Assembly: GCA_025839675.1 (NCBI GenBank)
Contig: CP104013.1
Span: 2,280,001-2,312,000 of the forward strand
From: Candidatus Lokiarchaeum ossiferum
Lineage (GTDB): Archaea; Asgardarchaeota; Lokiarchaeia; Sigyniarchaeales; Promethearchaeaceae
Direction of reading: 5' to 3'
Length of the DNA: 32,000 nucleotides
How positions within the stretch are numbered: the first letter of the stretch is position 1; the number at the start of each line of letters is the position of its first letter. Below, in pieces: positions 3,623-31,863 of this stretch. The position numbers and the translations under genes are program-made. The notes beneath the pieces were generated by a model. It saw only the letters and a program-made list of their open reading frames with translations. It had not been told where the DNA came from and did not search any database.

Positions 3623-4873
3623 ATGGACAATTTTGGAGATTTATCCATTGCAGCGTATATCGCAAAATATATGTTGAGTCACAAACGATTGAGTTTGGAA
3701 ATTTTGAAGGACGAATTTAAACTTGATGATCAACAAGTTAGACAAGCAATAATCCGGTTATATTATCAAGGAAAAATCTTCGGGTTTCTAAAAGCGAGTG
3801 AAACCGGCTCAATTTTTCTGAACTTTAGTAGTTCTGATAATGAAATAAATCTTCAAGATTGTTCAATTCAAGAAATTATGGATTGGGATGTTTCCAAATT
3901 TAACTTAGACGAATTACGGAAAAGTGCTGAATCCGCTCTGGAAAATGATAATGATTTTCAAGATACTGATAGTAATCCCGCCTATTCACGAGTTAAAGAA
4001 ACAAATCAAAAAGATTTGATTTCAGTGGAAATGTATTTTGATATTGCTTGTGAAAAAGTAGCACTTCACGTCCATATTAACAATATTTCCCCTGAATTAA
4101 TAGAAGCAGTTATATTACGTATCAATTTCGAGAATTATTTTCATATCTCCGGAATTCAACCAGATATTCCATTAAAAATTGAAGAAAATTATTGTGAAGT
4201 GGAATTAGGGACAATTAAAAAAGCACTTCAAAAAAAAATCATTATCTTTTTTGATTTTGGTAAGAGGATGAATGAATTGAGTGTTAATGGTTATATGCGT
4301 TATAAGAATTTTGAAGGATATGCTCGATTTATTCGCCTGGAGAACATCAATGTAGATCAAACATTACCAGTTTTCACTCCCGAGAAATGTGATCCAAAAA
4401 TGGTAAAGACATTTATGAAATCCAAACATGTGAATCGACGAATTCAATCGTTTGGAATCACCAATTTTGCTGATACTAATCTTGCTTTCCAAAATATGAT
4501 CGAGGTGTCTAAAGAAATGGGATTCGAGCTCATTTCAAAAGTGGAGAAGGACCAGTCTCAAATGGTATTTTTCTTTGCTAAATTTCACAATCCATCCCAA
4601 GAAGCATATAGAATTTTGTTAGTTCCGCAGTGTAAAAATAATGTCTTGGCATTCTATTGTTGTGCCATATATGAAACCATTGTTGCCAATTTAATTCGAA
4701 AATTATGTTTTAATTTGGTCGGCAAATTGCGCTCTAAACGTTTAATCACGGATCAGGACCAACTCATCGACATGAATTGTATACGCTGTAAAAAAATGAT
4801 GAATATTTTTCCTCCAAAGGGAGATGTTATTGCTTGTAGTTCATGTCAATTATTACAAACTCCTTGGAAATGA
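3623..4873 (+). CDS. Hypothetical multi-domain protein: N-terminal winged-helix-like region, central beta-rich region, C-terminal CxxC...CxxC zinc ribbon
   Basis: 416-codon ORF. The ATG is preceded by GAGAGGGA (3609-3616). C-terminus is CIRCKKMMNIFPPKGDVIACSSCQ (two CxxC pairs). No catalytic motif recognised. Confidence 0.6.
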   Translation: MDNFGDLSIAAYIAKYMLSHKRLSLEILKDEFKLDDQQVRQAIIRLYYQGKIFGFLKASETGSIFLNFSSSDNEINLQDCSIQEIMDWDVSKFNLDELRKSAESALENDNDFQDTDSNPAYSRVKETNQKDLISVEMYFDIACEKVALHVHINNISPELIEAVILRINFENYFHISGIQPDIPLKIEENYCEVELGTIKKALQKKIIIFFDFGKRMNELSVNGYMRYKNFEGYARFIRLENINVDQTLPVFTPEKCDPKMVKTFMKSKHVNRRIQSFGITNFADTNLAFQNMIEVSKEMGFELISKVEKDQSQMVFFFAKFHNPSQEAYRILLVPQCKNNVLAFYCCAIYETIVANLIRKLCFNLVGKLRSKRLITDQDQLIDMNCIRCKKMMNIFPPKGDVIACSSCQLLQTPWK

Positions 4874-12107: not shown

Positions 12108-13196
12108 ATGATCACTTTTATTACCACCTTTGAAAATAAAAGATACATGGGCGATTTAGATGAAAAACTCGATCAATATTCCCAATATGAAAATTATGCA
12201 ATCATTTCCTCAAAGAATAATCGCTTAATTACTGATCAAAATAAGGTTTTTATCCCATTCCGAGCAGTCTATGAAATTGAAATGTTAGTTTCACTCTATT
12301 TAATCAATTATTCCTATGATTCAATTGAAAAAGGAGCGTTTTCAATGATGGATGTCAACGAATTAAGCAATCTTTTAGGAATCGCTGAAAAAAGCCTTTA
12401 TCGAAATATTGTTGAAAGATTTTTTGTATCCTTTGAAAAAATTAAGCCCATAAGATTAAATGCACGAGATAACAGCGATCGAAAACGAATGGGAAATGTA
12501 AATGCCTATTCTGAATCTCGAATACCTGCTTTTTTTGCTGTAGATCGGCTGAAGGTCAAATTCCTGATCTTAAAGAAAATTCTCACAAAACTGAAAGAAA
12601 ATGATTTTATTCTTCAAAAAATGACTTTATTGCAAATAGAACCAGATACAACCTTGGAAACTGTGGTATTCGAAGAATATTATAAATACCTAACGGAATA
12701 TTTTAATATTATAACCCCAAAAAAGGAGTTTTCTCATTCCAAACATAACGTTCTATATAGTATTGGCACTGAAAAGCTAGAAGAAATCCGCGGATATCTG
12801 AGTCTTGCCAAAAATTCACCATTAAATTATATTATGAGAAGTTTAAAATCTTCTCTTTTTGTGTGTAATTTAATCTTTACTCAAATGGATGTTCCAGATC
12901 CATTTTACCACACTGATGAAACAATCATCGATATTCGCGAAACCATTGCGGATCCCCAATTAATTCCGAGTTTGGTTCAGGAATTAGATGTCGCCTTAAG
13001 AAATAAAAATATCACAATGGCAGAAGAATTGCATGATAAGTTCGAATTATTAGTTAAACGTATTTTGAAAGCCCTTAGCAATGCAATCACAACTGCATCC
13101 AACGGACAGATTCATTTACGAGTAGAAGAGACTCTATATTCCACAGGAAGTATCTTTGAAAATGAAAAAAAGAGGGAAAAATTGGACAAGAAGTAA
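12108..13196 (+). CDS. Hypothetical protein (362 aa), mostly helical by composition, no recognisable motif
   Basis: Uninterrupted ORF with ATG start in a region with no competing long ORF. C-terminal K/E-rich tail. Confidence 0.55.
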   Translation: MITFITTFENKRYMGDLDEKLDQYSQYENYAIISSKNNRLITDQNKVFIPFRAVYEIEMLVSLYLINYSYDSIEKGAFSMMDVNELSNLLGIAEKSLYRNIVERFFVSFEKIKPIRLNARDNSDRKRMGNVNAYSESRIPAFFAVDRLKVKFLILKKILTKLKENDFILQKMTLLQIEPDTTLETVVFEEYYKYLTEYFNIITPKKEFSHSKHNVLYSIGTEKLEEIRGYLSLAKNSPLNYIMRSLKSSLFVCNLIFTQMDVPDPFYHTDETIIDIRETIADPQLIPSLVQELDVALRNKNITMAEELHDKFELLVKRILKALSNAITTASNGQIHLRVEETLYSTGSIFENEKKREKLDKK

Positions 13197-13750: not shown

Positions 13751-14218
13751 TCAATTTAGAGTGTCAGTAGCAAGATCATGCAAAGACTTATGAAAAGATT
13801 TAACATTCAAAAGAAACTCGTCAACACTCCCTTCAAGATTAATTTTTTCTAAAAAGATTTGCTTAAATAAAAGAATTCCTTGCGACAAGAAGTTTTCTCT
13901 CTTAGCTTGAGTCAAGTCATAAAATTCTTGATAATTTTTATAACCCAACTCTTTAAAATATCCCGGATCCCCATTCATTGTTCTAGCCCATTCAAATTGA
14001 TAGCGTCTTCCATCTTTCCAACAAATTGAAAGTAGAGGAGTAGATTCCAAGGAACTATCTTGATATAAATTTAAGTGATCAAAAATACGTTGAAGAATTT
14101 TTAGGTGATAAAGAACCTCATATTGGGTTGAATAGATAGATTGCCATAAATTGAAAGTTTCTTCGATGGTAGGAAAGGTTGAAATATTTCTCGCATGTAG
14201 TAAAGTTTCCAAGGTCAT
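13751..14218 (-). CDS. Hypothetical protein (155 aa)
   Basis: Clean ORF with ATG start. No motif recognised. Confidence 0.5.
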   Translation of the reverse strand: MTLETLLHARNISTFPTIEETFNLWQSIYSTQYEVLYHLKILQRIFDHLNLYQDSSLESTPLLSICWKDGRRYQFEWARTMNGDPGYFKELGYKNYQEFYDLTQAKRENFLSQGILLFKQIFLEKINLEGSVDEFLLNVKSFHKSLHDLATDTLN

Positions 14219-16302: not shown

Positions 16303-16670
16303 GAAGAAGTGATATTTAATGATATGTTGATTCACACTAAATAAATAATCTGGTAATATTAAAGGAACACACCTATATTTGGAAAATTGTTCATGAAAAA
16401 ATGTATAGACATTGGATATATAGCTTCGATTCGAATTGCACATTGTAATTTTTTCATTATTTTGATATAAATATTCCAAACCAATTGCATTAATGATCCC
16501 CAATATTTTTAGAAATAAGAACATCCTTTCAGAGATAGCAAATTAAAAATTCATGCGATTTTTTTTTTATTTATCATTAAATGAATTAGAACCTATCAAT
16601 CCGTTGAAATTATATAGATTATACCATTTAATTTATCTAAGCAATTCAATGTATAATTGATGTGACAGTT

Positions 16671-17324
16671 ATGGGTTTTAAAGATAAGTTAAAAAATTCC
16701 TTTGAATCGGTTTCCGATAAACTTCAAACTATGAGTTCAAGTTTGACAAAAGTTATAAAAAGTGCTAAAGATTCAAGTAAATCTCACGAAAAATTAAGTG
16801 AAGATAAAAAAGAAGAAGCAACAGCACTGAAAATCCTGATGGAAGAATCCTCAGAGAAATTTAAGGAAATTTCCAAACCATTTAATGAGATTTTTGCGAA
16901 CATAGAGGCAAAACGGTTAGAAATGACTCAAGAATTGAATGCTCAATTCATTCAACCATTAGAAGGATTAGTACAAGATTGGTTAGCTTTACAAGATGTT
17001 ATTAAAGAGGAAGAAAAGGCTCAAAAAAACCATCTGAAGGCAAAAAACTCTCTCGAGAAAAAACATCAAAAATTTGAAAAAACACCTGAGAAAATGAAAC
17101 CAGGTGAGATTGATAATGCAGCAACAGAAGTAGCAAATTGTTTTGATCAATTAAAAATAAAACAAGAAGAAAAAGAAAAAGTGGCTGCAGAATACGAAAA
17201 GAAGAAAAGTACGATTTTATCGCAAGCTCTATCAGATTCCATAAAAATTCAAGGCAAATTCCATCAAAATGTTGTAGATAACCTTGTTGATGCAAATGAA
17301 ATTTTGGAAACCTTAAATTCTTAG
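16671..17324 (+). CDS. All-helical K/E-rich coiled-coil protein (about 217 aa), BAR-domain-like candidate
   Basis: ORF with ATG at 16671 (track starts at GTG 16662). Heptad-like charged helices throughout. Amphipathic N-terminus MGFKDKLKNSFESVSDKL. See findings for the BAR-like layout. Confidence 0.6.
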   Translation: MGFKDKLKNSFESVSDKLQTMSSSLTKVIKSAKDSSKSHEKLSEDKKEEATALKILMEESSEKFKEISKPFNEIFANIEAKRLEMTQELNAQFIQPLEGLVQDWLALQDVIKEEEKAQKNHLKAKNSLEKKHQKFEKTPEKMKPGEIDNAATEVANCFDQLKIKQEEKEKVAAEYEKKKSTILSQALSDSIKIQGKFHQNVVDNLVDANEILETLNS

Positions 17325-25239: not shown

Positions 25240-26932
25240 AGCAGTCTTTCAAAAGATAGGTACCCTTTTTTCTTCCTACCAATCTCTACAAGTTCCCGGA
25301 TTTGCAATAGGAATATTGAATGACGTTGGAGAATTAATTCATCATGCAGGTTTTGGTCAAGCAAATTTGGAACTTTTATCCCCAATCACAAAAAACACAG
25401 TATTTGATATCGGCTCCATGGCCAAGCAATTTGTAGGATTTCTTATCGCCATACTAATTGATGAAGGAAAGTTGTCCCCGACTCAGAAACTCTCATCCGT
25501 TTTTCCTTCTTGGCCAAAATTTTATGACAATATTGAAATCCAACATTTACTTTACCATACCAGCGGATTATGGAATTACACTACTTTATGTTATTATATA
25601 ATAGGTTATCATGAAACAGATGCTCCAACCAAAGAGGAAATAATTCAAATTCTACAACGCCAGCCTAAATATAAGTTTCATCCAGGTTCTCAATTTGAAT
25701 ATAACGATTCAAACTATTTCTTATTAGCCCTATTGCTGGAAAGAATTCTCCACAAACCTATTGATTTAATTGCCAAGGAACGGATTTTTGACCCCCTTCA
25801 AATGCACCAAACTCTATTTCGGACAACCCATGCTCAAGTAATTCCTAATCGAGCGGCAAGTTATGTATCTTATCCGATAAAATTCACAAGCCCATATACA
25901 TACGATCGTACTCTAGTTAAGGAAAAAAAATTCTTTACAAAAATCTCTAATTATGAACATGTAGGTGCAGAAGGAGTCTTTAGTTCAGTCAATGATCTAG
26001 CAATTTGGCAAAGAAATCTTCTTAATAACATATTAGGTAAAAATCCAAGCCATGTTTTAGAATTATTTATCTCTCCGGGAGAACTCAATTCTAGGGAATT
26101 AATATCCTATGGATATGGAATAGAAATACACGAATCCCAAGGAAAATCATTTATTGGACATTGTGGAGCGTTTCAAGGCTATACTTCATGCCTTTTAAAT
26201 TATTCAACCGAATTTTTTTCAATAATTGTCTTAGGTAATCATCTCATTGAAAATGCATGGAATGTTCGAGATAAAATCGCTTCAATTCTACGTAGTAATG
26301 AGAATTCAACACAAAAAGAACCTAAATTAAATAATCACGAAAAAATTATCCCAAATTCTCTATCAAGAGGATTTATTGGACGATATCAAAATCCAGACAC
26401 TTCCTCAATTATTTCAATTGAAGAAATTTGCAATAAATTGTGTATGAAAATAAATAGTGAAGTAAGTAAACCATTCCAATATCAAAAAGATGGAAATTTA
26501 TATTTCAATTCAGAAAACTGGGTACAATTTTCTAAATTCGTCAAGAAAATCCCAAAAATTTTGAAATATCATTTGGGATCGAAAATATTATGTTTTGAAA
26601 GATTTGTGAATGAATCATTGTTGCCAGAAAAATTAACAGAATATTTAGGGGAATACCATTGTGAAATTCTGAATACTAGTTTCCAAGTTAGAAATTATGA
26701 AGGAAAATTACTTCTGAAAAACAAAAATCCACATTTTTGTTCTCTTGATTTGCTTTATACCCCTACGATACCAGATTCTTTTGAAAGCTATGATCCCCAT
26801 CCTTATGCTATGTTCATAACTTTTCAAAGAGAAAAATCTATTGAAAAATCCGATAGAAGAAAAATCATAAGTTTTACATATCGAGATTATGATGGAGATA
26901 AAAGAGAAGAATTTGAATTCAAAAAATTATAG
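25226..26932 (+). CDS. Class-C beta-lactamase-family serine hydrolase with a roughly 200-aa C-terminal extension
   Basis: SxxK nucleophile motif in FDIGSMAKQF, plus YHTSGL, YNDSNY (YxN) and GHCGAFQGY. The tail carries two similar G.Y....(beta)-type modules (FIGRYQNPDTS..., YLGEYHCEILN...). The start overlaps the upstream gene by 14 nt. Confidence 0.88.
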   Translation: MNIDEAVFQKIGTLFSSYQSLQVPGFAIGILNDVGELIHHAGFGQANLELLSPITKNTVFDIGSMAKQFVGFLIAILIDEGKLSPTQKLSSVFPSWPKFYDNIEIQHLLYHTSGLWNYTTLCYYIIGYHETDAPTKEEIIQILQRQPKYKFHPGSQFEYNDSNYFLLALLLERILHKPIDLIAKERIFDPLQMHQTLFRTTHAQVIPNRAASYVSYPIKFTSPYTYDRTLVKEKKFFTKISNYEHVGAEGVFSSVNDLAIWQRNLLNNILGKNPSHVLELFISPGELNSRELISYGYGIEIHESQGKSFIGHCGAFQGYTSCLLNYSTEFFSIIVLGNHLIENAWNVRDKIASILRSNENSTQKEPKLNNHEKIIPNSLSRGFIGRYQNPDTSSIISIEEICNKLCMKINSEVSKPFQYQKDGNLYFNSENWVQFSKFVKKIPKILKYHLGSKILCFERFVNESLLPEKLTEYLGEYHCEILNTSFQVRNYEGKLLLKNKNPHFCSLDLLYTPTIPDSFESYDPHPYAMFITFQREKSIEKSDRRKIISFTYRDYDGDKREEFEFKKL

Positions 26933-27523
26933 TTGTTTGGTTTTTATTCCACCAGAATTATTAACATTGCTTTGTTCTTTCCATTTGATAGCCAGTTTTT
27001 TTATTTCTCCAAAGACATCAATACAATCCTTTTCATGTTTTGCTGAAATAGTCATGTGTCCTATAATATTAGCAGATTTGGGTAAAGTTTCTTTTAGAAC
27101 TTCCCATTCACTGATATTGGTTCGAAGCATGTCATCATTAACCAAATCTTTTTTAGAACCCACAATTAAAATAGGAATGGATGGATATTCTGTTTGTAAT
27201 AGAGAAATCCAACTGGGTATATGATATAAAGTACTAATACGGGTCAAATCATACAAAATTATTGCAGCTTTAGCGCCCAATATGAATGCCTTATGGATAA
27301 ATTGAAAACGTTCTTGTCCTCCCAAATCATAAACAAGAATAGAAACATCTTTAGGCTCTGATACGATGTTATAACAATCAAAATCAATACCAATGGTTAA
27401 CTTTTCTTCGGGAGTAAATTTGCCCGCCAATTTGGATTTCAGTAACGACGTTTTTCCAACACCACCATCACCAGCCAAAATTGTCTTATAAATGGGTTTT
27501 AAGGATTTGATCATCATCTTCAC
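26927..27523 (-). CDS. Rab/Ras-like small GTPase
   Basis: G1 GDGGVGKTS, switch I TIGIDF, G3 DLGGQERF, G4 GSKKDL, G5 ISAK. No C-terminal Cys (ends GGIKTKQL). Confidence 0.9.
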   Translation of the reverse strand: MKMMIKSLKPIYKTILAGDGGVGKTSLLKSKLAGKFTPEEKLTIGIDFDCYNIVSEPKDVSILVYDLGGQERFQFIHKAFILGAKAAIILYDLTRISTLYHIPSWISLLQTEYPSIPILIVGSKKDLVNDDMLRTNISEWEVLKETLPKSANIIGHMTISAKHEKDCIDVFGEIKKLAIKWKEQSNVNNSGGIKTKQL

Positions 27524-27678: not shown

Positions 27679-28623
27679 ATGGAATCATCTATTAGTAAAT
27701 TACGGTTGGATTATCTGAATACCTTCAATTTTCTGGTCAAATACAAGAGTTTTTCAGAAACGGCTCGAATTTTGAATAAAACCCAAGGCACTATCTCAAT
27801 GCACATAAAAGAATTGGAACATGCCTTTGGAGGGACAAACCACAAACAATTACTGATAGATAGAAATTCCAAAAACTTCCAATTAACACCTGAAGGATTT
27901 CTGCTGTACTCTGCAACACAAAAAGTTGAAGAAATAATTAATAATGTGTCCAAAAAAATTGATGAATCCATTGGTAAAAAGCAAAAAATAATCGAAATAC
28001 AATCTTCTTCAATCCCGGGGGAATATATCCTTCCCGCCTACATTTTGAAATATAACAGTAAACATACTAACGTTATGATTGAAGCGCTTATTTCAAACTC
28101 ACAAGAAGCATTGAGAAGAATGCGAGAATCTAAATCGACTTTTTGCGCGATTGGAGGATGGTTTGGAGAATTCGAGGCAGATTATGACGTAAAAGTGATT
28201 GGGAAGGATACAATTGTCATAATTGGGAGAGAAAAACACCCGATTTTTGATAAGTTGAAAAAAAGGGGAATAAATTACTCACGAGATGATATGATTAATG
28301 ATTTGAAAGAATATAATTGGATATTCAGAGAATCGGGTTCAGCAACTCTTGATTGGTTTATGAAACATTTTCCAAGATCCCAAGAAATTCAAATCGGATT
28401 GAAATTTCATAATAATTCTTCAATTTTGCACGCATTGGAAAATAGCGACGCTCTAACAGCTCTAAGTTCGTTTGTTGTTCCATCTACTGTGAAAAATTGG
28501 GCTTTGAAAGTCATTAAACATAAAACACTACCCATAATAGAGCGAAACTTGTATTTAATTAAAAGAAAAGGAATTAAACTTCAAGATTTCGAACAGAAAT
28601 TCTGGGATCTTTTTAACCATTAA
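27679..28623 (+). CDS. LysR-family transcriptional regulator
   Basis: N-terminal HTH LNTFNFLVKYKSFSETARILNKTQGTISMHIKELEHAFG...L..R..K.FQLTPEG, followed by a roughly 200-aa periplasmic-binding-protein-like effector domain. Confidence 0.88.
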   Translation: MESSISKLRLDYLNTFNFLVKYKSFSETARILNKTQGTISMHIKELEHAFGGTNHKQLLIDRNSKNFQLTPEGFLLYSATQKVEEIINNVSKKIDESIGKKQKIIEIQSSSIPGEYILPAYILKYNSKHTNVMIEALISNSQEALRRMRESKSTFCAIGGWFGEFEADYDVKVIGKDTIVIIGREKHPIFDKLKKRGINYSRDDMINDLKEYNWIFRESGSATLDWFMKHFPRSQEIQIGLKFHNNSSILHALENSDALTALSSFVVPSTVKNWALKVIKHKTLPIIERNLYLIKRKGIKLQDFEQKFWDLFNH

Positions 28624-28733: not shown

Positions 28734-29267
28734 ATGGTGTCAGAGGATTCTACATCTAAGTTAAAAAAAATTATCCGAAACCCCATCTTTTTGGGATGTA
28801 TAATTGGATTTTTAGCTGCGGTGACTCAAGCATTGCTAATTGGTGCAGGAGGGCCCGAAGCTTATGGATTTTGTGTTGCGTGTCACACACGAGATTTGGT
28901 GAATGACATAATAAACCTAATTGTTGGAGAACCTGTATTAGGAGTAGCCCCTATTTCACAAAATGCAATTTTTGCAGTATTAACCATTATTGGAGTGATG
29001 ATCGGAGCGTTTATTTCTGCCAAGGTGAATAAAGAATTTAAAATCAAAAAATCTTCCCTAGGATCTTATCTGATCTATCTACTTGGAGGAATATTAGTAT
29101 TGATTTTTGCTTTACTTTTAGGAGCATGTCCATATCGAGCAGCACTTCGTTTTGGTTATGGAGATATGGTTGCATTAATAGGAATATTGGCAATGGCATT
29201 GGGTGTTTTTGTAGGAGTAAAAATAATTTTGAAACGAATGGAAAACCAAATGGAGGAAGAGGCATAA
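28734..29267 (+). CDS. YeeE/YedE-family sulfur(selenium)-compound transporter, N-terminal half
   Basis: Polytopic membrane protein with GFCVACHTRD and LLGACPYRA motifs, which correspond to the conserved Cys re-entrant loops of the Sulf_transp repeat. Confidence 0.8.
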   Translation: MVSEDSTSKLKKIIRNPIFLGCIIGFLAAVTQALLIGAGGPEAYGFCVACHTRDLVNDIINLIVGEPVLGVAPISQNAIFAVLTIIGVMIGAFISAKVNKEFKIKKSSLGSYLIYLLGGILVLIFALLLGACPYRAALRFGYGDMVALIGILAMALGVFVGVKIILKRMENQMEEEA

Positions 29268-29268
29268 A

Positions 29269-29775
29269 ATGGCAGGATGGTTATCAGCTGAAGCAGCATA
29301 TATCGCGGTACCAATTGTAACTTTATTCTTAGGAATACTCATTGGATATTTAGCACAACAATCTGGATTTTGTTCTATTGGAGGAATACGAGATCTATTC
29401 TTATTTAAACATACACGACTTTTCTTTGGATATCTTGCACTTATTGTATCTTCTTTTGTGAGTTATTTGATATTTTCTTTAATATGGTCCGGAGAATTTC
29501 CAAATTTCTTCTGGGCAATTAAGAATGGAATTACAACACCTATTCCAGGAGCACCGGGCGGTTTAGCAAATTGGGCATATATAATCCTTGCAATAATTGG
29601 AGGATTGGGACTGGGAATACTAGGAGTTTTCTTAGGAGGATGTCCGTTACGTCAAACAGTCATGGGTTTTGAAGGAAATATCAAATCAATATTCTTCATA
29701 GTTGGGATGTTGATAGGAGCAGTCGTTTTTCACTTGTGGATAGCAAGTTGGGTAGTAAGCTTATTTGGGGGTTAA
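29269..29775 (+). CDS. YeeE/YedE-family transporter, C-terminal half
   Basis: SGFCSIGGIRD and LGGCPLRQ motifs with four hydrophobic segments. The start codon lies 1 nt after the previous stop. Confidence 0.8.
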   Translation: MAGWLSAEAAYIAVPIVTLFLGILIGYLAQQSGFCSIGGIRDLFLFKHTRLFFGYLALIVSSFVSYLIFSLIWSGEFPNFFWAIKNGITTPIPGAPGGLANWAYIILAIIGGLGLGILGVFLGGCPLRQTVMGFEGNIKSIFFIVGMLIGAVVFHLWIASWVVSLFGG

Positions 29776-29803
29776 TTCTTTTTTTATTTGAAAGGTGAGA
29801 CTA

Positions 29804-30031
29804 ATGACAGAACACAAGATTGATATCACTGGGAAAATTTGTCCGTTTTGCTTATTGTTAATTAAGAAAAAATTGGCTAAAATAGATGAAGGAGATAATT
29901 TGATTGTTACATGTGACCACCCTCCTGCTGCAATCGATACTATCCCTTATGCAATGAAAAAAATTGGGTATCCCGTCGAATCAAAGAAGATTGAATCGGG
30001 AGTATGGGAACTGAAAATCACTAAATCATAG
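29804..30031 (+). CDS. tusA: TusA/SirA-family sulfur carrier protein
   Basis: IDITGKICPFCLLLIKKKLAKIDEGDNLIV matches the TusA pattern (G..CP.P....k..l..l..G..L.v). GGTGA lies 5 nt before ATG 29804, which is preferred over the track's GTG 29795. Confidence 0.85.
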   Translation: MTEHKIDITGKICPFCLLLIKKKLAKIDEGDNLIVTCDHPPAAIDTIPYAMKKIGYPVESKKIESGVWELKITKS

Positions 30032-30039
30032 AGATTATT

Positions 30040-31212
30040 ATGTCGAATTCTCTCTTTTTTTTATTTTCGGAAAAAATATCTCCAGAACGATTGGAGTGGA
30101 TCTCTTTAATTCAAAATTTCTCCAAAAATACACTGACTATTGGAATTACGGGGGATGCCCTATATTCTTTTACAGATCAAAGCTTATTTCCAGAATGGGA
30201 ATCTATAATACGTAACCAAAGATGCAATATTCATCTGGATCAATGGGAGGCAGAAATCCGGGGAATCACGATAAAATCGCTAACAAAAAACTACAAAATT
30301 TCTTCCCTTACAAATATTAAATTATCAAAGAATATCAAAATAGGATTTTGGGATGCCATTCTCCAACTTGAAGAATTTAGAAATTTTAAAGATAATTATA
30401 TGGGATTTCTCCAAATGAAAGGTCCCTATATGAGCCGTAATTCAGTTTATGCAGTTAATTTCTTAGAATCCTCATTAAAGAATAAAAAAAAAGCTCAATT
30501 GTTGTGCTATTTAGATGGAGTTCACACAGGACATATAAATCAAGCACCTTCAGAATTTGAGAATATTGGTAGACTAATTTCCATGTATACAGATCCTCAA
30601 ACGCATAACAATCAGATAATGGAAACTCTGGCATGTTCTCGTTGTTGTATCGCTCGAGGTTATGGAGAAATAAACCAGAATAATGAGGAATACAAAGCAA
30701 AATCAGTAATTGATGGGTTTCGAATTTGCAATTTAAATGAAATTGTGGATCAATTCGAGCGAAGTTCTCCCATTTTTGCACCGAATGTGGGGATGTGGAT
30801 CAATTCCACTGAAAAAAAATTTATTTCTTCCCCCGAAATCTTGTTGATGATGACCCACACCCCATATCAAGAAGAATTTACCTTTGGAGGGTTGTCATTT
30901 GCGATGGCTTGTGCAAATCATGGCATTCATGTCTCTATTTTATTTGTTGAAGATGGAATTTATAATCTTGTTGGAGAACACAAAATCCATTCTCAAGATC
31001 ACGTATTCAACATTCAAGAAATCGTAGATGTCACATGGGAAATGGACAAAATCGACTATTACATATACACACCTTCAATATTGAGGAGAAATGTATCAAT
31101 TAATGGATATTTGAATTTTGTAAACCCACTCTCAACTGAGGAATTACAGTTGTTGATTTCGAAACATACAAACCAAGAAAATTCAAATATGGGGAGAATA
31201 ATATTTTTTTAA
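30040..31212 (+). CDS. Single-chain protein with three DsrE/DsrF/DsrH (TusD/C/B)-like domains
   Basis: Three repeats of the DsrE-fold signature. Domain 1: LTIGITGDALYS...NIHLDQWEAEIRGI. Domain 2: LQMKGPYMSRNSVYAVNFL...LLCYLDGVHTG...LACSRCCIARGYG. Domain 3: MMTHTPYQEEFTFGGLSFAMA...ILFVEDGIYNLV...YYIYTPSILRRNV...GRIIFF. Confidence 0.65.
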   Translation: MSNSLFFLFSEKISPERLEWISLIQNFSKNTLTIGITGDALYSFTDQSLFPEWESIIRNQRCNIHLDQWEAEIRGITIKSLTKNYKISSLTNIKLSKNIKIGFWDAILQLEEFRNFKDNYMGFLQMKGPYMSRNSVYAVNFLESSLKNKKKAQLLCYLDGVHTGHINQAPSEFENIGRLISMYTDPQTHNNQIMETLACSRCCIARGYGEINQNNEEYKAKSVIDGFRICNLNEIVDQFERSSPIFAPNVGMWINSTEKKFISSPEILLMMTHTPYQEEFTFGGLSFAMACANHGIHVSILFVEDGIYNLVGEHKIHSQDHVFNIQEIVDVTWEMDKIDYYIYTPSILRRNVSINGYLNFVNPLSTEELQLLISKHTNQENSNMGRIIFF

Positions 31213-31238: not shown

Positions 31239-31466
31239 ATGGATAAACCTAAAGAAGTTCAAGATTTCACACACTTCACTTGCACAAATCTAATGCTGAA
31301 ACTGAAAATCTTATTAAAAAAATTAAGATCAGGGGAGAATCTACATTTCTTTTCAACTCGAGAACAATATGCTAACATTGAAAAACCGTTCTCCAAAGCT
31401 CCTTATTCCTTTGATGCACAAAAAGTGGAAGATAATACATATCTGATCAAAATTTTTAAGGATTGA
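31239..31466 (+). CDS. Second, divergent TusA-like protein (CPxP motif replaced by CTNL)
   Basis: FTHFTCTNLMLKLKILLKKLRSGENLHFFS...YLIKIFK follows the TusA layout and length (75 aa), but the Cys is not flanked by Pro. Confidence 0.5.
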   Translation: MDKPKEVQDFTHFTCTNLMLKLKILLKKLRSGENLHFFSTREQYANIEKPFSKAPYSFDAQKVEDNTYLIKIFKD

Positions 31467-31551: not shown

Positions 31552-31863
31552 TTGTTTTCTTTGAAAAACTCCATTAAAGACTTTTTATACTTTCAAAATA
31601 TGGACAAAACTATTCAAGCGCTCTTTTTTGGAGACAATTTCCAGGAAAAAATTCCCCAAATCATGAAAACACCCGATGAAAATTGCATTGAATGTAATCT
31701 CGGACGCAATATAATTGGAGGAATCTCAAAGGATGGTAATGATCAAGTCGATTTTGGTCTACAACCAGAAGATGCAAATCAAATTCTTCATCTTTTAAAG
31801 AAGCATCCTGCCTTAATTAATTTCAAACCAGACAATTTTGATTTAATATCTGAGGATCAATAA
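31552..31863 (+). CDS. Hypothetical small protein (start ambiguous: TTG 31552 or ATG 31600)
   Basis: ORF only. No motif recognised beyond a single CIEC. Confidence 0.4.
   Translation: MFSLKNSIKDFLYFQNMDKTIQALFFGDNFQEKIPQIMKTPDENCIECNLGRNIIGGISKDGNDQVDFGLQPEDANQILHLLKKHPALINFKPDNFDLISEDQ

Follow-up and report, generated by a model that had tools for sequence, protein, structure and literature searches.

DsrEFH and TusBCD are sulfur relays of three subunits, which are encoded in the order E-F-H (D-C-B) and form a ring-shaped trimer and, from it, an α2β2γ2 hexamer. [quoted passage not shown] 2026, PMC13293266; PMC13047784). TusA-type and DsrE-like domains have also been linked to selenium. The membrane protein YedE is nearly confined to organisms with the selenophosphate synthetase SelD, and in archaea two genes encode it; its partner YedF, in which a TusA domain is joined to a DsrE-like domain with the motif CGXC, was reported to be missing from archaea (Lin et al. 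2015, PMC5322559). When Methanococcus maripaludis is starved of selenium, the transcripts of yedE and tusA/tusD increase by 4.5-5.3 log2, and deletion of yedE gave no clear selenium phenotype in this species; according to the same study from 2024, a selenium-specific transporter is known in no organism (PMC11097638).

Here, a stretch of 32,000 nucleotides from Candidatus Lokiarchaeum ossiferum (the window) was analysed, in which one gene appears to unite all three DsrE-fold units in a single chain:

30040 to 31212, forward strand: predicted single-chain DsrH-DsrE-DsrF protein NEF87_001908, 390 aa (open reading frame, AF2, Foldseek)

The open reading frame reads without interruption, and every motif that had been quoted from it in the first-pass annotation was found in its place. 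Pfam PF02635 (DsrE/DsrF-like) matches the whole protein with 38.7 bits, above the gathering threshold of 22.7. The AlphaFold (AF2) model is compact (pLDDT 87.8, pTM 0.90), and in the Foldseek comparison that the annotation had proposed, the top specific matches of the full model are the six DsrEFH and TusBCD chains, with 2hy5_A, 2hy5_B, 2hy5_C, 2d1p_A and 2d1p_B at a probability of 1.00. Judged from its sequence, NEF87_001908 is a genuine fusion of a DsrH-like, a DsrE-like and a DsrF-like domain. An antisense ORF of 108 aa (30455-30781) lies wholly within the conserved coding sequence of the fusion.

The chance that sequencing or assembly errors have merged three genes through missed stop codons is negligible. 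This artefact had been named in the first-pass annotation as the finding that would overturn the fusion, and the conservation of the fusion in more than 100 genomes excludes it. The intact fused ORF recurs in about 50 homologue clusters from independent projects with identities of 30-83%, and 66 representatives (clustered at 50% identity) match with E-values below 1e-30. Confirmed relatives are present in 155 species-level genomes, complete chromosomes included, and were full-length or nearly full-length in all 80 loci examined. Nothing was found in favour of an artefact; the fragments and chimeras in the database (P0133 with its downstream ORF, P0051, P0112) are themselves broken fused genes. 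For instance, P0133 had been considered as a stand-alone N-terminal domain, but it is overlapped by the following ORF, in which the GPYMSR that opens the DsrE domain is missing; P0133 most likely represents a fused gene with a frameshift. The carriers are Asgard lineages and many Methanoregula and Methanolinea, with a majority of Methanoregulaceae; orthologous fusions, whose search in Asgard and other archaea had been recommended, thus exist in both groups. A published description of a single-chain DsrEFH was not found in the literature, in line with the remark in the annotation that no such fusion had come to notice.

The domains of the protein can be delimited as follows:

30040 to 30393, forward strand: N-terminal domain (aa 1-118), divergent DsrH/TusB-like (hhalign, AF2, Foldseek)
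30394 to 30813, forward strand: middle domain (aa 119-258), DsrE/TusD-like (TIGR03012, hhalign, profile match to 2hy5_A)
30634 to 30663, forward strand: putative active-site motif CSRCCIARGY, family consensus CxRCxxARGY (translation, alignment of 123 members)
30814 to 31209, forward strand: C-terminal domain (aa 259-390), DsrF/TusC-like, with a final conserved R-I-x-F-F strand (Pfam, TIGR03010, hhalign)

Three successive DsrE-family domains in the order H-E-F had been proposed, along with profile searches for each segment, and these searches returned DsrE for the middle and DsrF for the C-terminal domain by both HMMER and hhalign, and DsrH as the best family for the N-terminal domain by hhalign alone. 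The middle domain matches TIGR03012 (TusD/DsrE) with an E-value of 2e-8 and 34.1 bits, which is below the equivalog cut-off of 89.25, and DsrE/TusD in hhalign with 99.7-99.8% (E 2e-25 to 4e-28); on Pfam DsrE it scores 16.5 bits by itself, under the gathering threshold of 22.7. The C-terminal domain reaches 27.1 bits on the same Pfam model, above the cut-off of 22.7, and matches TIGR03010 (TusC/DsrF) with E-values of 7e-8 to 1.2e-7 and 31.7 bits, below the equivalog cut-off of 94.15. In hhalign it matches DsrF/TusC with 99.6%, and its profile also matches 2hy5_B and 3mc3_A.

The only conserved cysteines of the fusion family are C199 and C202, both in the DsrE-like domain, and C199 is aligned with the active-site Cys78 of DsrE in the profile match to 2hy5_A. 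In an alignment of 123 members, C199 is conserved in 98%, C202 in 97% and C203 in 1%, and R201, A205, R206, G207 and Y208 are each conserved in at least 90%; both motif cysteines are invariant in 14 unfused relatives. The first-pass annotation had ascribed a Cys-rich CSRCC motif to the middle domain alone. Conserved cysteines are indeed restricted to this domain, and the third one (C203) is peculiar to L. ossiferum. Several database matches start or stop close to position 200 of the profile, from which the suspicion arose that Cys199 is replaced by selenocysteine (UxxC forms) in some relatives. This was rejected: the sequences in question either start at a conserved Met in front of an intact Cys (MLACSRC) or stem from chimeric or broken contigs.

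The N-terminal domain is the most divergent part of the protein. Residues 1-118 form a confidently folded alpha/beta domain (pLDDT 92) in the AF2 model, and no Cys column among them is conserved in more than 37% of the 123 members; the alignment of the N-terminal domain likewise lacks an invariant Cys. Searches of Pfam, NCBIfam and PDB sequences with this domain returned no match; Pfam PF04077 (DsrH-like) matched neither the window protein nor any of 28 homologues of the N-terminal domain at E-values up to 10, and a family search with DsrH as the query gave a single match. A DsrH/TusB profile was built by hand from TusB/DsrH sequences that had been checked against 2d1p_C and 2hy5_C and from DsrH genes of related loci. 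By hhalign, the N-terminal domain matches this profile with 86.5-89.6% (E 2e-6 to 5e-6) over 76-94 columns, as compared to 19-41% for DsrF and 0.1-4% for DsrE, and the hallmarks of DsrH align: LLxxDGVY with FFLTGDALYS, and EDLxARGV with DxxELxLxGL. The best family match of the domain is DsrH/TusB, which becomes visible by profile-profile comparison only.

It could be argued that residues 1-118 form a Rossmann-like domain that is unrelated or arose independently, in which case the protein would contain only two DsrE-family domains and would be no true H-E-F fusion. The missing HMMER-level match to DsrH fits this idea, as do the absence of the final beta-strand of DsrH from the domain and the Foldseek search with the isolated domain, in which E-values were 0.025-0.17 and DsrH/TusB did not appear among the top 50 matches. 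However, the best matches of that same search are all DsrE-fold proteins (2pd2, 2fb6, 1l1s; TM 0.57-0.69, probability 0.91-0.99), the full model is matched by the DsrH chain 2hy5_C with a probability of 1.00, DsrH clearly outscores both the DsrE and the DsrF profile in hhalign, and a bona fide DsrH gene lies exactly upstream of dsrE in unfused relatives. We therefore consider a two-domain protein improbable and retain the three-domain fusion.

The unfused relatives also bear on the origin of the fusion. Archaeal dsrH-dsrE-dsrF(-tusA) operons are present in four loci (L098, L096, L010, L093), in which the stop and start codons overlap. A fused and permuted H-E-F protein had been postulated in the first-pass annotation; the fusion stands, and the permutation is true only in relation to the bacterial dsrEFH/tusDCB order, as the unfused archaeal operons, such as that of a Methanomassiliicoccales MAG (L098, 4672-6010), already show the H-E-F order. 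Given this order and the overlapping codons, plain loss of stop codons explains the fusion. The unfused operons also share with the fusion a DsrE motif of the CxxCxxARGY type, and they carry tusA directly after dsrF, mirroring the TusA-like gene after the fusion. They differ in consisting of three separate, translationally coupled genes, in a DsrH that is recognised by Pfam, and in their surroundings, which lack an adjacent YedE permease and contain DrsE_2/DsrE2-like and DUF169 genes downstream. The ORFs upstream of dsrE in L009 and L094 look DsrH-like by eye and were set aside because profile searches with them gave no significant match.

The fusion is part of a conserved gene cluster with the order two YedE/YeeE half-permeases, TusA, fusion, second TusA-like protein and CxxC protein, which in L. 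ossiferum follows a regulator gene:

27679 to 28623, forward strand: LysR-family regulator (Pfam HTH_1 and LysR_substrate; NF040786)
28734 to 29267, forward strand: first half-size YedE/YeeE-family permease (Pfam Sulf_transp, 1.3e-12)
29269 to 29775, forward strand: second half-size YedE/YeeE-family permease, 1 nt after the first (TIGR04112)
29795 to 30031, forward strand: TusA-family carrier with a CP[FY]C motif (Pfam TusA, 1.4e-15, 57.3 bits, cut-off 28.6)
31239 to 31466, forward strand: divergent TusA-like protein of 75 aa (small75) with Cys15 in TCTNLM (Pfam, hhalign)
31552 to 31863, forward strand: conserved CxxC protein of 103 aa (orf103; conservation)

The best NCBIfam match of the regulator is NF040786 LysR_Sec_metab (1.4e-47; 162 bits with a cut-off of 250), followed by a family with 88 bits; a LysR homologue adjoins the cluster in only 2 of the 80 loci, both of the Loki type. 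On TIGR04112 (seleno_YedE), the two halves of the permease reach 70.5 and 76.4 bits, versus 27.5 and 19.3 on TsuA, and joined together they score 136 bits (cut-off 200) versus 35 (cut-off 645). Conserved cysteines are C47, C50 and C132 in the first half, whose gene occurs in 54 of the 80 loci, and C35 and C125 in the second (56 of 80). The TusA protein, encoded directly upstream of the fusion as had been annotated, has YedF PRK11018 as its best NCBIfam match (6.5e-8); its C16 and C19 are 76% and 90% conserved, and its gene is found in 43 of the 80 loci at a median distance of 47 nt from the fusion. Downstream, small75 matches Pfam TusA weakly (E 0.024) and the family of the first TusA over its full length with 55% (E 1.2e-4, hhalign), its Cys15 being aligned with the TusA Cys. 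This residue is present in 57 of 57 sequences, and the gene, which occurs in 57 of the 80 loci at a median distance of 16 nt, is the sole TusA-like gene in 24 Methanolinea-type loci. No match of orf103 was obtained in Pfam and NCBIfam searches; its C45 and C48 are 96% conserved, and the gene, present in 23 of the 80 loci, directly precedes selD in six Asgard-type loci. Further neighbours are a small NIR_SIR sulfite-reductase-like gene, 1.5-3.6 kb from the fusion in 34 of the 80 loci, and, in Methanoregula-type loci, genes for an acyl-CoA-dehydratase-type activase, a double-cubane reductase and an aminotransferase of the Sec-lyase family. In the flanks of the 80 loci, as in the 32-kb window, neither dsrAB nor dsrC/tusE nor mnmA was detected.

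Several homologues have been named 'tRNA 2-thiouridine synthesizing protein C' by JGI, which would make the fusion an archaeal TusBCD orthologue that supplies sulfur for tRNA 2-thiouridine. The adjacent tusA gene and the weak best matches to the TusD and TusC equivalog models agree with this name. However, these matches lie far below the cut-offs (34 versus 89 and 32 versus 94 bits), the TusB/DsrH model remains unmatched, tusE/dsrC and mnmA are missing from the neighbourhood, and the constant partners are the membrane permease, joined in sister loci by selD or the sulfite-reductase-like protein. This partner pattern suggests a role in uptake and trafficking rather than in tRNA modification, and the tRNA role appears very improbable. 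Archaea form s2U34 by an Ncs6/Urm1-type route. By sequence and neighbourhood, the fusion is not orthologous to DsrEFH/TusBCD: it misses the equivalog cut-offs, has no equivalent of DsrH Cys20 and lies near neither dsrC/tusE nor dsrAB.

The cargo of the relay can be approached through the genomic context. Sulfur had been presumed in the first-pass annotation; a chalcogen relay still fits, and selenium is indicated by the context no less strongly than sulfur, as seen from the best match of the LysR regulator, the split YedE-type permease and the selenocysteine-containing selD in sister loci. Indeed, the regulator, the permease and TusA of L. ossiferum each have a selenium-associated family as their best match, with all these scores below the curated cut-offs (162 versus 250, 136 versus 200 and 32 versus 79). 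Of the 14 Asgard-type loci, 7 have a true selD gene (187 bits on TIGR00476, cut-off 125; 299 on NF010705, cut-off 291) beside the cluster, and six of these genes contain an in-frame TGA at the selenocysteine site KIHG*SCKLG. The 32-kb window has no selD, as the 137 nt that follow orf103 in it are the beginning of a different ORF, and selD is likewise absent from the Methanoregulaceae flanks; a SelD-like match in the Methanolinea locus L084 proved to be HypE. No tRNA-Sec was found in the 14 Asgard-type loci.

Taken together, we slightly favour the view that the fusion is a covalent pseudo-heterotrimer that acts as a cysteine-based chalcogen carrier of an uptake-and-relay operon, with SelD as the likeliest consumer and selenium as the favoured cargo in Asgard archaea. 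The conservation of this operon, which ends in SelD in sister genomes, indicates that sulfur or selenium is probably passed between carrier cysteines. As SelD is the most likely consumer in Asgard archaea, the genomic context makes selenium somewhat more likely there than sulfur. The fusion would work in the cytoplasm, in one operon with the two-piece YedE/YeeE-type permease, TusA, the TusA-like protein and the CxxC protein; in L. ossiferum, this operon is placed behind a LysR regulator of the selenium-associated type. The permease may import a reactive sulfur or selenium species, which the cysteine of TusA would take up and transfer, in persulfide or perselenide form, to Cys199 in the DsrE-like domain. 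Cys202 could then resolve the adduct or hand it on, and the downstream TusA-like and CxxC proteins may deliver the cargo to its consumer. The DsrH-like and DsrF-like domains, devoid of conserved cysteines, would be structural partners that complete a predicted ring of the trimer type characteristic of DsrE-family proteins. More tentatively, the operon might be a previously undescribed archaeal selenium-supply pathway, in which selenium is captured and selenide is handed to the selenoprotein SelD, the fusion with its redox-active CxRC motif being the functional counterpart of bacterial YedF. If true, the archaeal lineage closest to eukaryotes would offer the first candidate for a specific route by which selenium reaches selenophosphate synthetase.

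The same architecture and Cys199 relay could also serve sulfur, in which case the system would be an archaeal equivalent, in fused form, of the bacterial YTD cluster with DsrEFH type II; we regard this as possible, if rather unlikely. A split YeeE-type permease would import thiosulfate, TusA/YeeD would take it as thiosulfonate or persulfide, and the fusion would accept sulfane sulfur for assimilation, with the small sulfite reductase, where present, disposing of sulfite. That sulfite-reductase-like gene, in 34 of the 80 loci, is a simpler fit to sulfur; moreover, the synteny of yeeE, tusA and DsrEFH-like genes defines DsrEFH type II, for which sulfur transfer from TusA to DsrE onto the equivalent Cys has been shown in vitro (PMC13293266; PMC13047784). 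YeeE/YeeD has been reported as a system for thiosulfate uptake and decomposition (PMC11073785), and in an Asgard genome paper a thiosulfate/persulfide route is modelled with TsuA, TusA and DsrE (bioRxiv 10.1101/2025.07.22.663070). Furthermore, most carriers are Methanoregulaceae, for which no report of SelD was found, and within the order Methanomicrobiales a survey found SelD only in Methanoplanus petrolearius (Lin et al. 2015, PMC5322559). Against sulfur stand the permease scores (136 bits on the selenium-linked YedE versus 35 on TsuA), the selenium-associated best match of the regulator, and the selD with its Sec codon beside half of the Asgard-type clusters. In addition, the activase, the double-cubane reductase and the Sec-lyase-family aminotransferase of the Methanoregula-type loci are STRING partners of YedE/YedF in a bacterial selenium locus, and the window is free of dsrAB, dsrC or another sulfur consumer. 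The chalcogen carrier with a selenium preference in Asgard archaea thus remains our preferred reading.

Irrespective of the cargo, the single-chain version would mean that the predicted E-F-H ring, here H-E-F, can be hard-wired in one polypeptide and that a reactive cysteine is needed in only one of its three units. Such a protein would be convenient for structural and mutational work. No dsr genes were found beside the fusion in the 80 loci, so that relays of the DsrEFH type need not go together with dissimilatory sulfur metabolism in the carriers. The operon also offers defined and testable candidates for the uptake of selenium by cells and for its specific delivery to SelD.

Compared with the described systems, the fusion resembles DsrEFH/TusBCD in its three paralogous DsrE-fold units, its TusA partner and the aligned position of the reactive Cys on the DsrE/TusD unit (C199 with Cys78). 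In contrast, it is one H-E-F polypeptide rather than three subunits, has a second Cys (CxRC) and no equivalent of DsrH Cys20, scores far under the equivalog cut-offs, has no dsrC/tusE, dsrAB or mnmA in its context, and resides in Asgard archaea and methanogens. With DsrEFH type II, it shares the position of a DsrEFH-like unit beside tusA and a yeeE/yedE permease gene, a combination present in the window and in 54-56 of 80 related loci, as well as high divergence from type I, a functional Cys on the DsrE unit only and a DsrH-like unit without Cys20. By its published description, type II differs in its three small genes (dsrE-like, chp1, chp2) in E-F-H order and its 33 kDa trimer (Plum-Jensen et al. 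2026, PMC13293266; PMC13047784). Since three syntenic genes were required in the type II survey, a fused gene could not be counted there; surveys that demand three syntenic dsrEFH genes will have overlooked the fusion family.

The homotrimeric DsrE3A/DsrE3-type proteins (PDB 3MC3; DsrE3A-TusA of Metallosphaera cuprina) have the DsrE fold in common with the fusion, as well as, by prediction for the latter, a ring-forming trimer and an exchange with TusA, and 3mc3_A is the best PDB sequence match of the fusion-family profile. However, they consist of three identical chains, each with a Cys, that carry thiosulfonate, whereas the fusion combines three different domains, of which one would be active. 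The YeeE/YeeD (TsuA/TsuB) thiosulfate uptake system likewise has a Sulf_transp-family permease with conserved cysteines followed by a TusA-family protein; it differs in that the permease of the present cluster is encoded by two half-size genes with 35 bits on TsuA (cut-off 645), and in that the classical system has no DsrEFH-like partner. Finally, YedE/YedF (FdhT/FdhU) with its LysR_Se regulator (PMC5322559) is set apart by the architecture of YedF, which joins one TusA domain to one DsrE-like domain with CGXC, whereas TusA is separate here and the H-E-F chain has three domains and a CxRC motif; the YedF model TIGR03527 matches only the separate TusA (model positions 1-68) and not the fusion. 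In both systems, however, a YedE-type permease, encoded here by two genes as reported for archaea, is combined with soluble partners that comprise a TusA/SirA-type domain and a DsrE-like domain with a CxxC-type motif. The activase, reductase and Sec-lyase-family neighbours of the Methanoregula type match the bacterial partner list, and further points of resemblance are the LysR regulator of the selenium-associated type and, in sister loci, the selD gene beside the cluster.

Translation of 30040-31212 (+) yields an uninterrupted frame of 390 aa, in which all motifs quoted in the first-pass annotation were found in place; a database search identified the product as the hypothetical protein NEF87_001908 of Candidatus Lokiarchaeum ossiferum (100% identity). 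About 50 clusters of full-length homologues of this fusion protein, with 30-83% identity, were recovered from independent assemblies. Moreover, when 1.84 billion representative sequences were searched with a profile, 66 proteins matched at E <1e-30, and with each species sampled by one genome, a confirmed relative was present in 155 genomes. Because full-length homologues recur in independent assemblies, a merger of separate genes by assembly error could be ruled out. The best 80 of the 155 genomes comprise Asgard archaea (Promethearchaeota/Lokiarchaeia, Hermod-, Odin- and Harpocratesius members), many Methanomicrobiales (Methanoregula, Methanolinea and others) and a single bin labelled Bathyarchaeota; related fusions, for which a search had been proposed, thus occur in both Asgard archaea and Methanomicrobiales. 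Some genomes carry two copies and several copies lie on complete chromosomes. Two database proteins, P0051 and P0112, are chimeric predictions in which a piece of the fusion is attached to the N-terminal portion of the second YedE half; both stem from short contigs and are probably artefacts of assembly or deletion.

The chain had been read as DsrH-like, DsrE-like and DsrF-like segments in that order, and profile searches of each segment bear this out. The Pfam family PF02635 (DsrE/DsrF-like) exceeded the threshold for the whole fusion and for residues 258-390, matched residues 116-257 below the threshold and did not match residues 1-115. In NCBIfam, residues 127-240 matched TusD/DsrE and residues 267-376 matched TusC/DsrF, in either case with a score far under the equivalog cut-off. 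When a 50-sequence fusion profile was compared with the PDB, the middle domain matched DsrE (2hy5_A) and the C-terminal domain DsrF (2hy5_B) and the DsrE3A-like 3mc3_A. Furthermore, the fusion alignment was split into three domains, and each was set against small profiles built from unfused DsrE, DsrF and DsrH/TusB proteins; for the last of these, TusB and DsrH had been verified against 2d1p_C and 2hy5_C. This profile-profile comparison assigned the middle domain to DsrE (99.7-99.8%), the C-terminal domain to DsrF (99.6%) and the N-terminal domain to DsrH (86.5-89.6%, E 2e-6 to 5e-6); for the N-terminal domain, DsrF reached 19-41% and DsrE 0.1-4%. In the DsrH alignment, FFLTGDALYS falls on LLxxDGVY and DxxELxLxGL on EDLxARGV, and the invariant F103-W104 helix is aligned on the DsrH helix that contains DF. 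The N-terminal sequence is so divergent that HMMER did not detect this domain in any family member.

The whole chain was modelled by AlphaFold2 from the alignment with a pLDDT of 87.8 and a pTM of 0.90, and with a probability of 1.00 (target TM 0.63-0.75) Foldseek matched the full model to chains of DsrE, DsrF, DsrH, TusD and TusC. For residues 1-118 modelled alone (pLDDT 92), the top matches were all DsrE-fold proteins (2pd2, 2fb6, 1l1s), DsrH and TusB being absent from the top 50; the last strand of DsrH is missing from this domain. It is well supported, and in our view very probable, that three DsrE-superfamily domains in H-E-F order form one conserved chain; the weakest link is the derivation of the N-terminal domain from DsrH.

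Among 123 family members, C199 (98%) and C202 (97%) are the only conserved cysteines. Both sit in the motif C-x-R-C-x-x-A-R-G-Y, the first falls on DsrE Cys78 in the profile alignment to 2hy5_A, and all of 14 unfused DsrE relatives retain the pair. Thus, the proposal that only the middle domain keeps a Cys-rich motif holds for C199 and C202, but not for the CSRCC triple, whose third cysteine, C203, is found in 1% of members. No cysteine is conserved in the DsrH-like or the DsrF-like domain of the 123 members, and the equivalent of DsrH Cys20 is therefore missing. DsrE-like selenoproteins with a UxxC motif have been listed (PMC13188914), which suggests that a CxxC of this sort can be redox-active in proteins of the DsrE-like type. 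A search for a Sec form of the fusion family found none.

The nearest unfused relatives show two arrangements. In the first, E-F-(FeS protein)-H or FeS-E-F-H stands behind an ArsR-type regulator; in the second, the unfused genes follow the order H-E-F (L010, L093, L096/L097, L098).

Unfused relatives (locus-relative coordinates)
L007, 4603-7326: DsrE-DsrF-DsrH cluster with ArsR-type regulator and PF04060 'FeS' protein
L011, 874-3233: DsrE-DsrF-DsrH cluster with ArsR-type regulator and PF04060 'FeS' protein
L098, 4672-7315: dsrH-dsrE-dsrF-tusA, then a DsrE2-like (DrsE_2) gene and a DUF169 gene

DsrE of L007 and L011 has the CxRCxxARGY motif as in the fusion, and upstream of the L007 cluster are genes for three thioredoxin-like proteins and an ArsP permease. 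In L098, a Methanomassiliicoccales MAG, the stop of dsrH and the start of dsrE overlap, and dsrF follows dsrE after a single base; DUF169 stands on the published list of YedE partners (PMC5322559). In layout, the L098 operon corresponds to the fusion with its small downstream TusA-like gene. To obtain the fusion, it suffices that two stop codons are lost. Thus, of the description "fused and permuted" the fusion stands, but a permutation event is unnecessary, since unfused archaeal operons already have the order H-E-F.

In the window, all genes of the cluster share a strand, and neighbours are 1-110 nt apart.

Window cluster
27679-28623, +: LysR regulator
28734-29267, +: first half-size YedE/YeeE permease
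29269-29775, +: second half-size YedE/YeeE permease
29795-30031, +: TusA
30040-31212, +: fusion
31239-31466, +: small75, a 75-aa TusA-like protein
31552-31863, +: orf103, a 103-aa CxxC protein

Among the best 80 loci, the permease halves are found with the fusion in 54-56, TusA in 43, small75 on the 3' side in 57 and orf103 in 23. The permease genes are 1 nt apart and each encodes conserved cysteines (GFCVACHTRD and GGCPYR; SGFCSIGG and GGCPLRQ), and their division agrees with the published archaeal YedE split into two neighbouring genes (Lin et al. 2015, PMC5322559). Small75 has no significant family match; it is a divergent TusA-like protein in which one invariant residue, Cys15 (motif TCTNLM), matches the TusA Cys in the alignment, and in 24 Methanolinea-type loci it is the sole TusA-like partner, in place of the upstream TusA. 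Orf103 has no match in Pfam or NCBIfam, and its CxxC motif (C45, C48) is 96% conserved. Directly upstream of the regulator, on the opposite strand, lies a Ras/Roc-family small GTPase gene (26927-27523, -). Elsewhere the window encodes an MCP chemoreceptor, a TFIIB homologue, an Alba protein, a 556-aa ORF (464-2134, -) weakly matching the ACS/CODH beta subunit C-terminal domain (E 7.8e-8) and four ORFs of at least 150 aa without Pfam match (3623-4873, 12108-13196, 13751-14218, 16662-17324).

From homology and synteny we infer a relay centred on Cys199, in which the two-piece permease would feed TusA-type carriers and these would pass the cargo to the fusion. For permease, TusA and regulator alike, the best NCBIfam match is selenium-associated, always under the curated cut-off. 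The permease halves score 70.5 and 76.4 bits on seleno_YedE and 136 when joined (cut-off 200; TsuA joined 35), TusA scores 32 bits on YedF (cut-off 79; runner-up TsuB/YeeD 28.9) and the regulator 162 bits on the selenium-metabolism-associated LysR (cut-off 250; runner-up YeiE 88). YedE is almost confined to SelD-containing organisms; YedF, a TusA/SirA domain joined to a DsrE-like domain with a CGXC motif, is absent from archaea (Lin et al. 2015, PMC5322559). A SelD search of the retrieved loci found selD adjoining the cluster in 7 of 14 Asgard-type loci, and two of the remaining seven have too little downstream flank for a verdict.

selD in Asgard-type loci (locus-relative coordinates)
L016, 6619-7494, +: downstream of orf103
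L017, 7118-7993, +: downstream of orf103
L018, 7024-7869, +: downstream of orf103
L020, 7048-8001, +: downstream of orf103
L021, 2158-3078, +: downstream of orf103
L027, 6994-7866, +: downstream of orf103
L074, 2471-3385, -: upstream

The adjoining genes encode true SelD (TIGR00476 184-187 bits, cut-off 125; NF010705 299, cut-off 291). The six downstream copies, directly behind orf103 on the same strand, have an in-frame TGA at the selenocysteine position of the conserved KIHG*SCKLG, so the ORF calls start about 30-60 codons too late. Moreover, selenium starvation raises the transcripts of the two-gene yedE and of a tusA/tusD pair in Methanococcus maripaludis by 4.5-5.3 log2 (PMC11097638).

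Across the entire family, sulfur or a dual use is a serious alternative. A yedE deletion in M. maripaludis gave no clear selenium phenotype (PMC11097638), and biochemically, TusA/DsrE relays have a precedent only in sulfur transfer. The window itself has no selD, its last 137 nt beginning a different ORF. Most carriers are Methanoregulaceae, and SelD was reported from only one Methanomicrobiales member (Lin et al. 2015, PMC5322559). Furthermore, a small NIR_SIR sulfite-reductase-like protein of about 300 aa is encoded within 1.5-3.6 kb in 34/80 loci, all of Methanoregula type.

Methanoregula-type surroundings (locus-relative coordinates)
L030: 3348-4268, -; 4228-4884, +; 6359-7141, +; 7298-8524, +
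L026: 7520-8791, -

These loci also encode a 190-218-aa conserved protein of no assigned family and a rubredoxin. However, they hold in addition a BcrAD/BadFG-type (acyl-CoA-dehydratase-type) activase, a double-cubane-cluster reductase and a cysteine-desulfurase/Sec-lyase-family aminotransferase, which do not favour sulfur because all three are STRING partners of YedE/YedF in a bacterial selenium locus (PMC5322559). For the Asgard branch, including the window, selenium is somewhat more likely than sulfur, and the operon deserves attention as a candidate supply route for either element.

The first-pass annotation knew of no such fusion, and our literature search likewise found no account of a single-chain DsrEFH. 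Two papers from 2026 describe 'DsrEFH type II', in which DsrE-like, Chp1 and Chp2 are separate, highly divergent proteins whose genes share the YTD cluster with tusA and yeeE in Desulfobacterota and other groups, and for which sulfur transfer from TusA to DsrE(Cys67) has been demonstrated (PMC13293266; PMC13047784). The type II survey demanded three syntenic genes and does not mention fusions, Asgard or methanogen members (PMC13293266). By its published description, type II consists of three proteins, whereas the fusion is one chain. Neither DsrEFH nor TusBCD is orthologous to the fusion, which is a new, apparently undescribed single-chain form of the DsrEFH-like relay theme.
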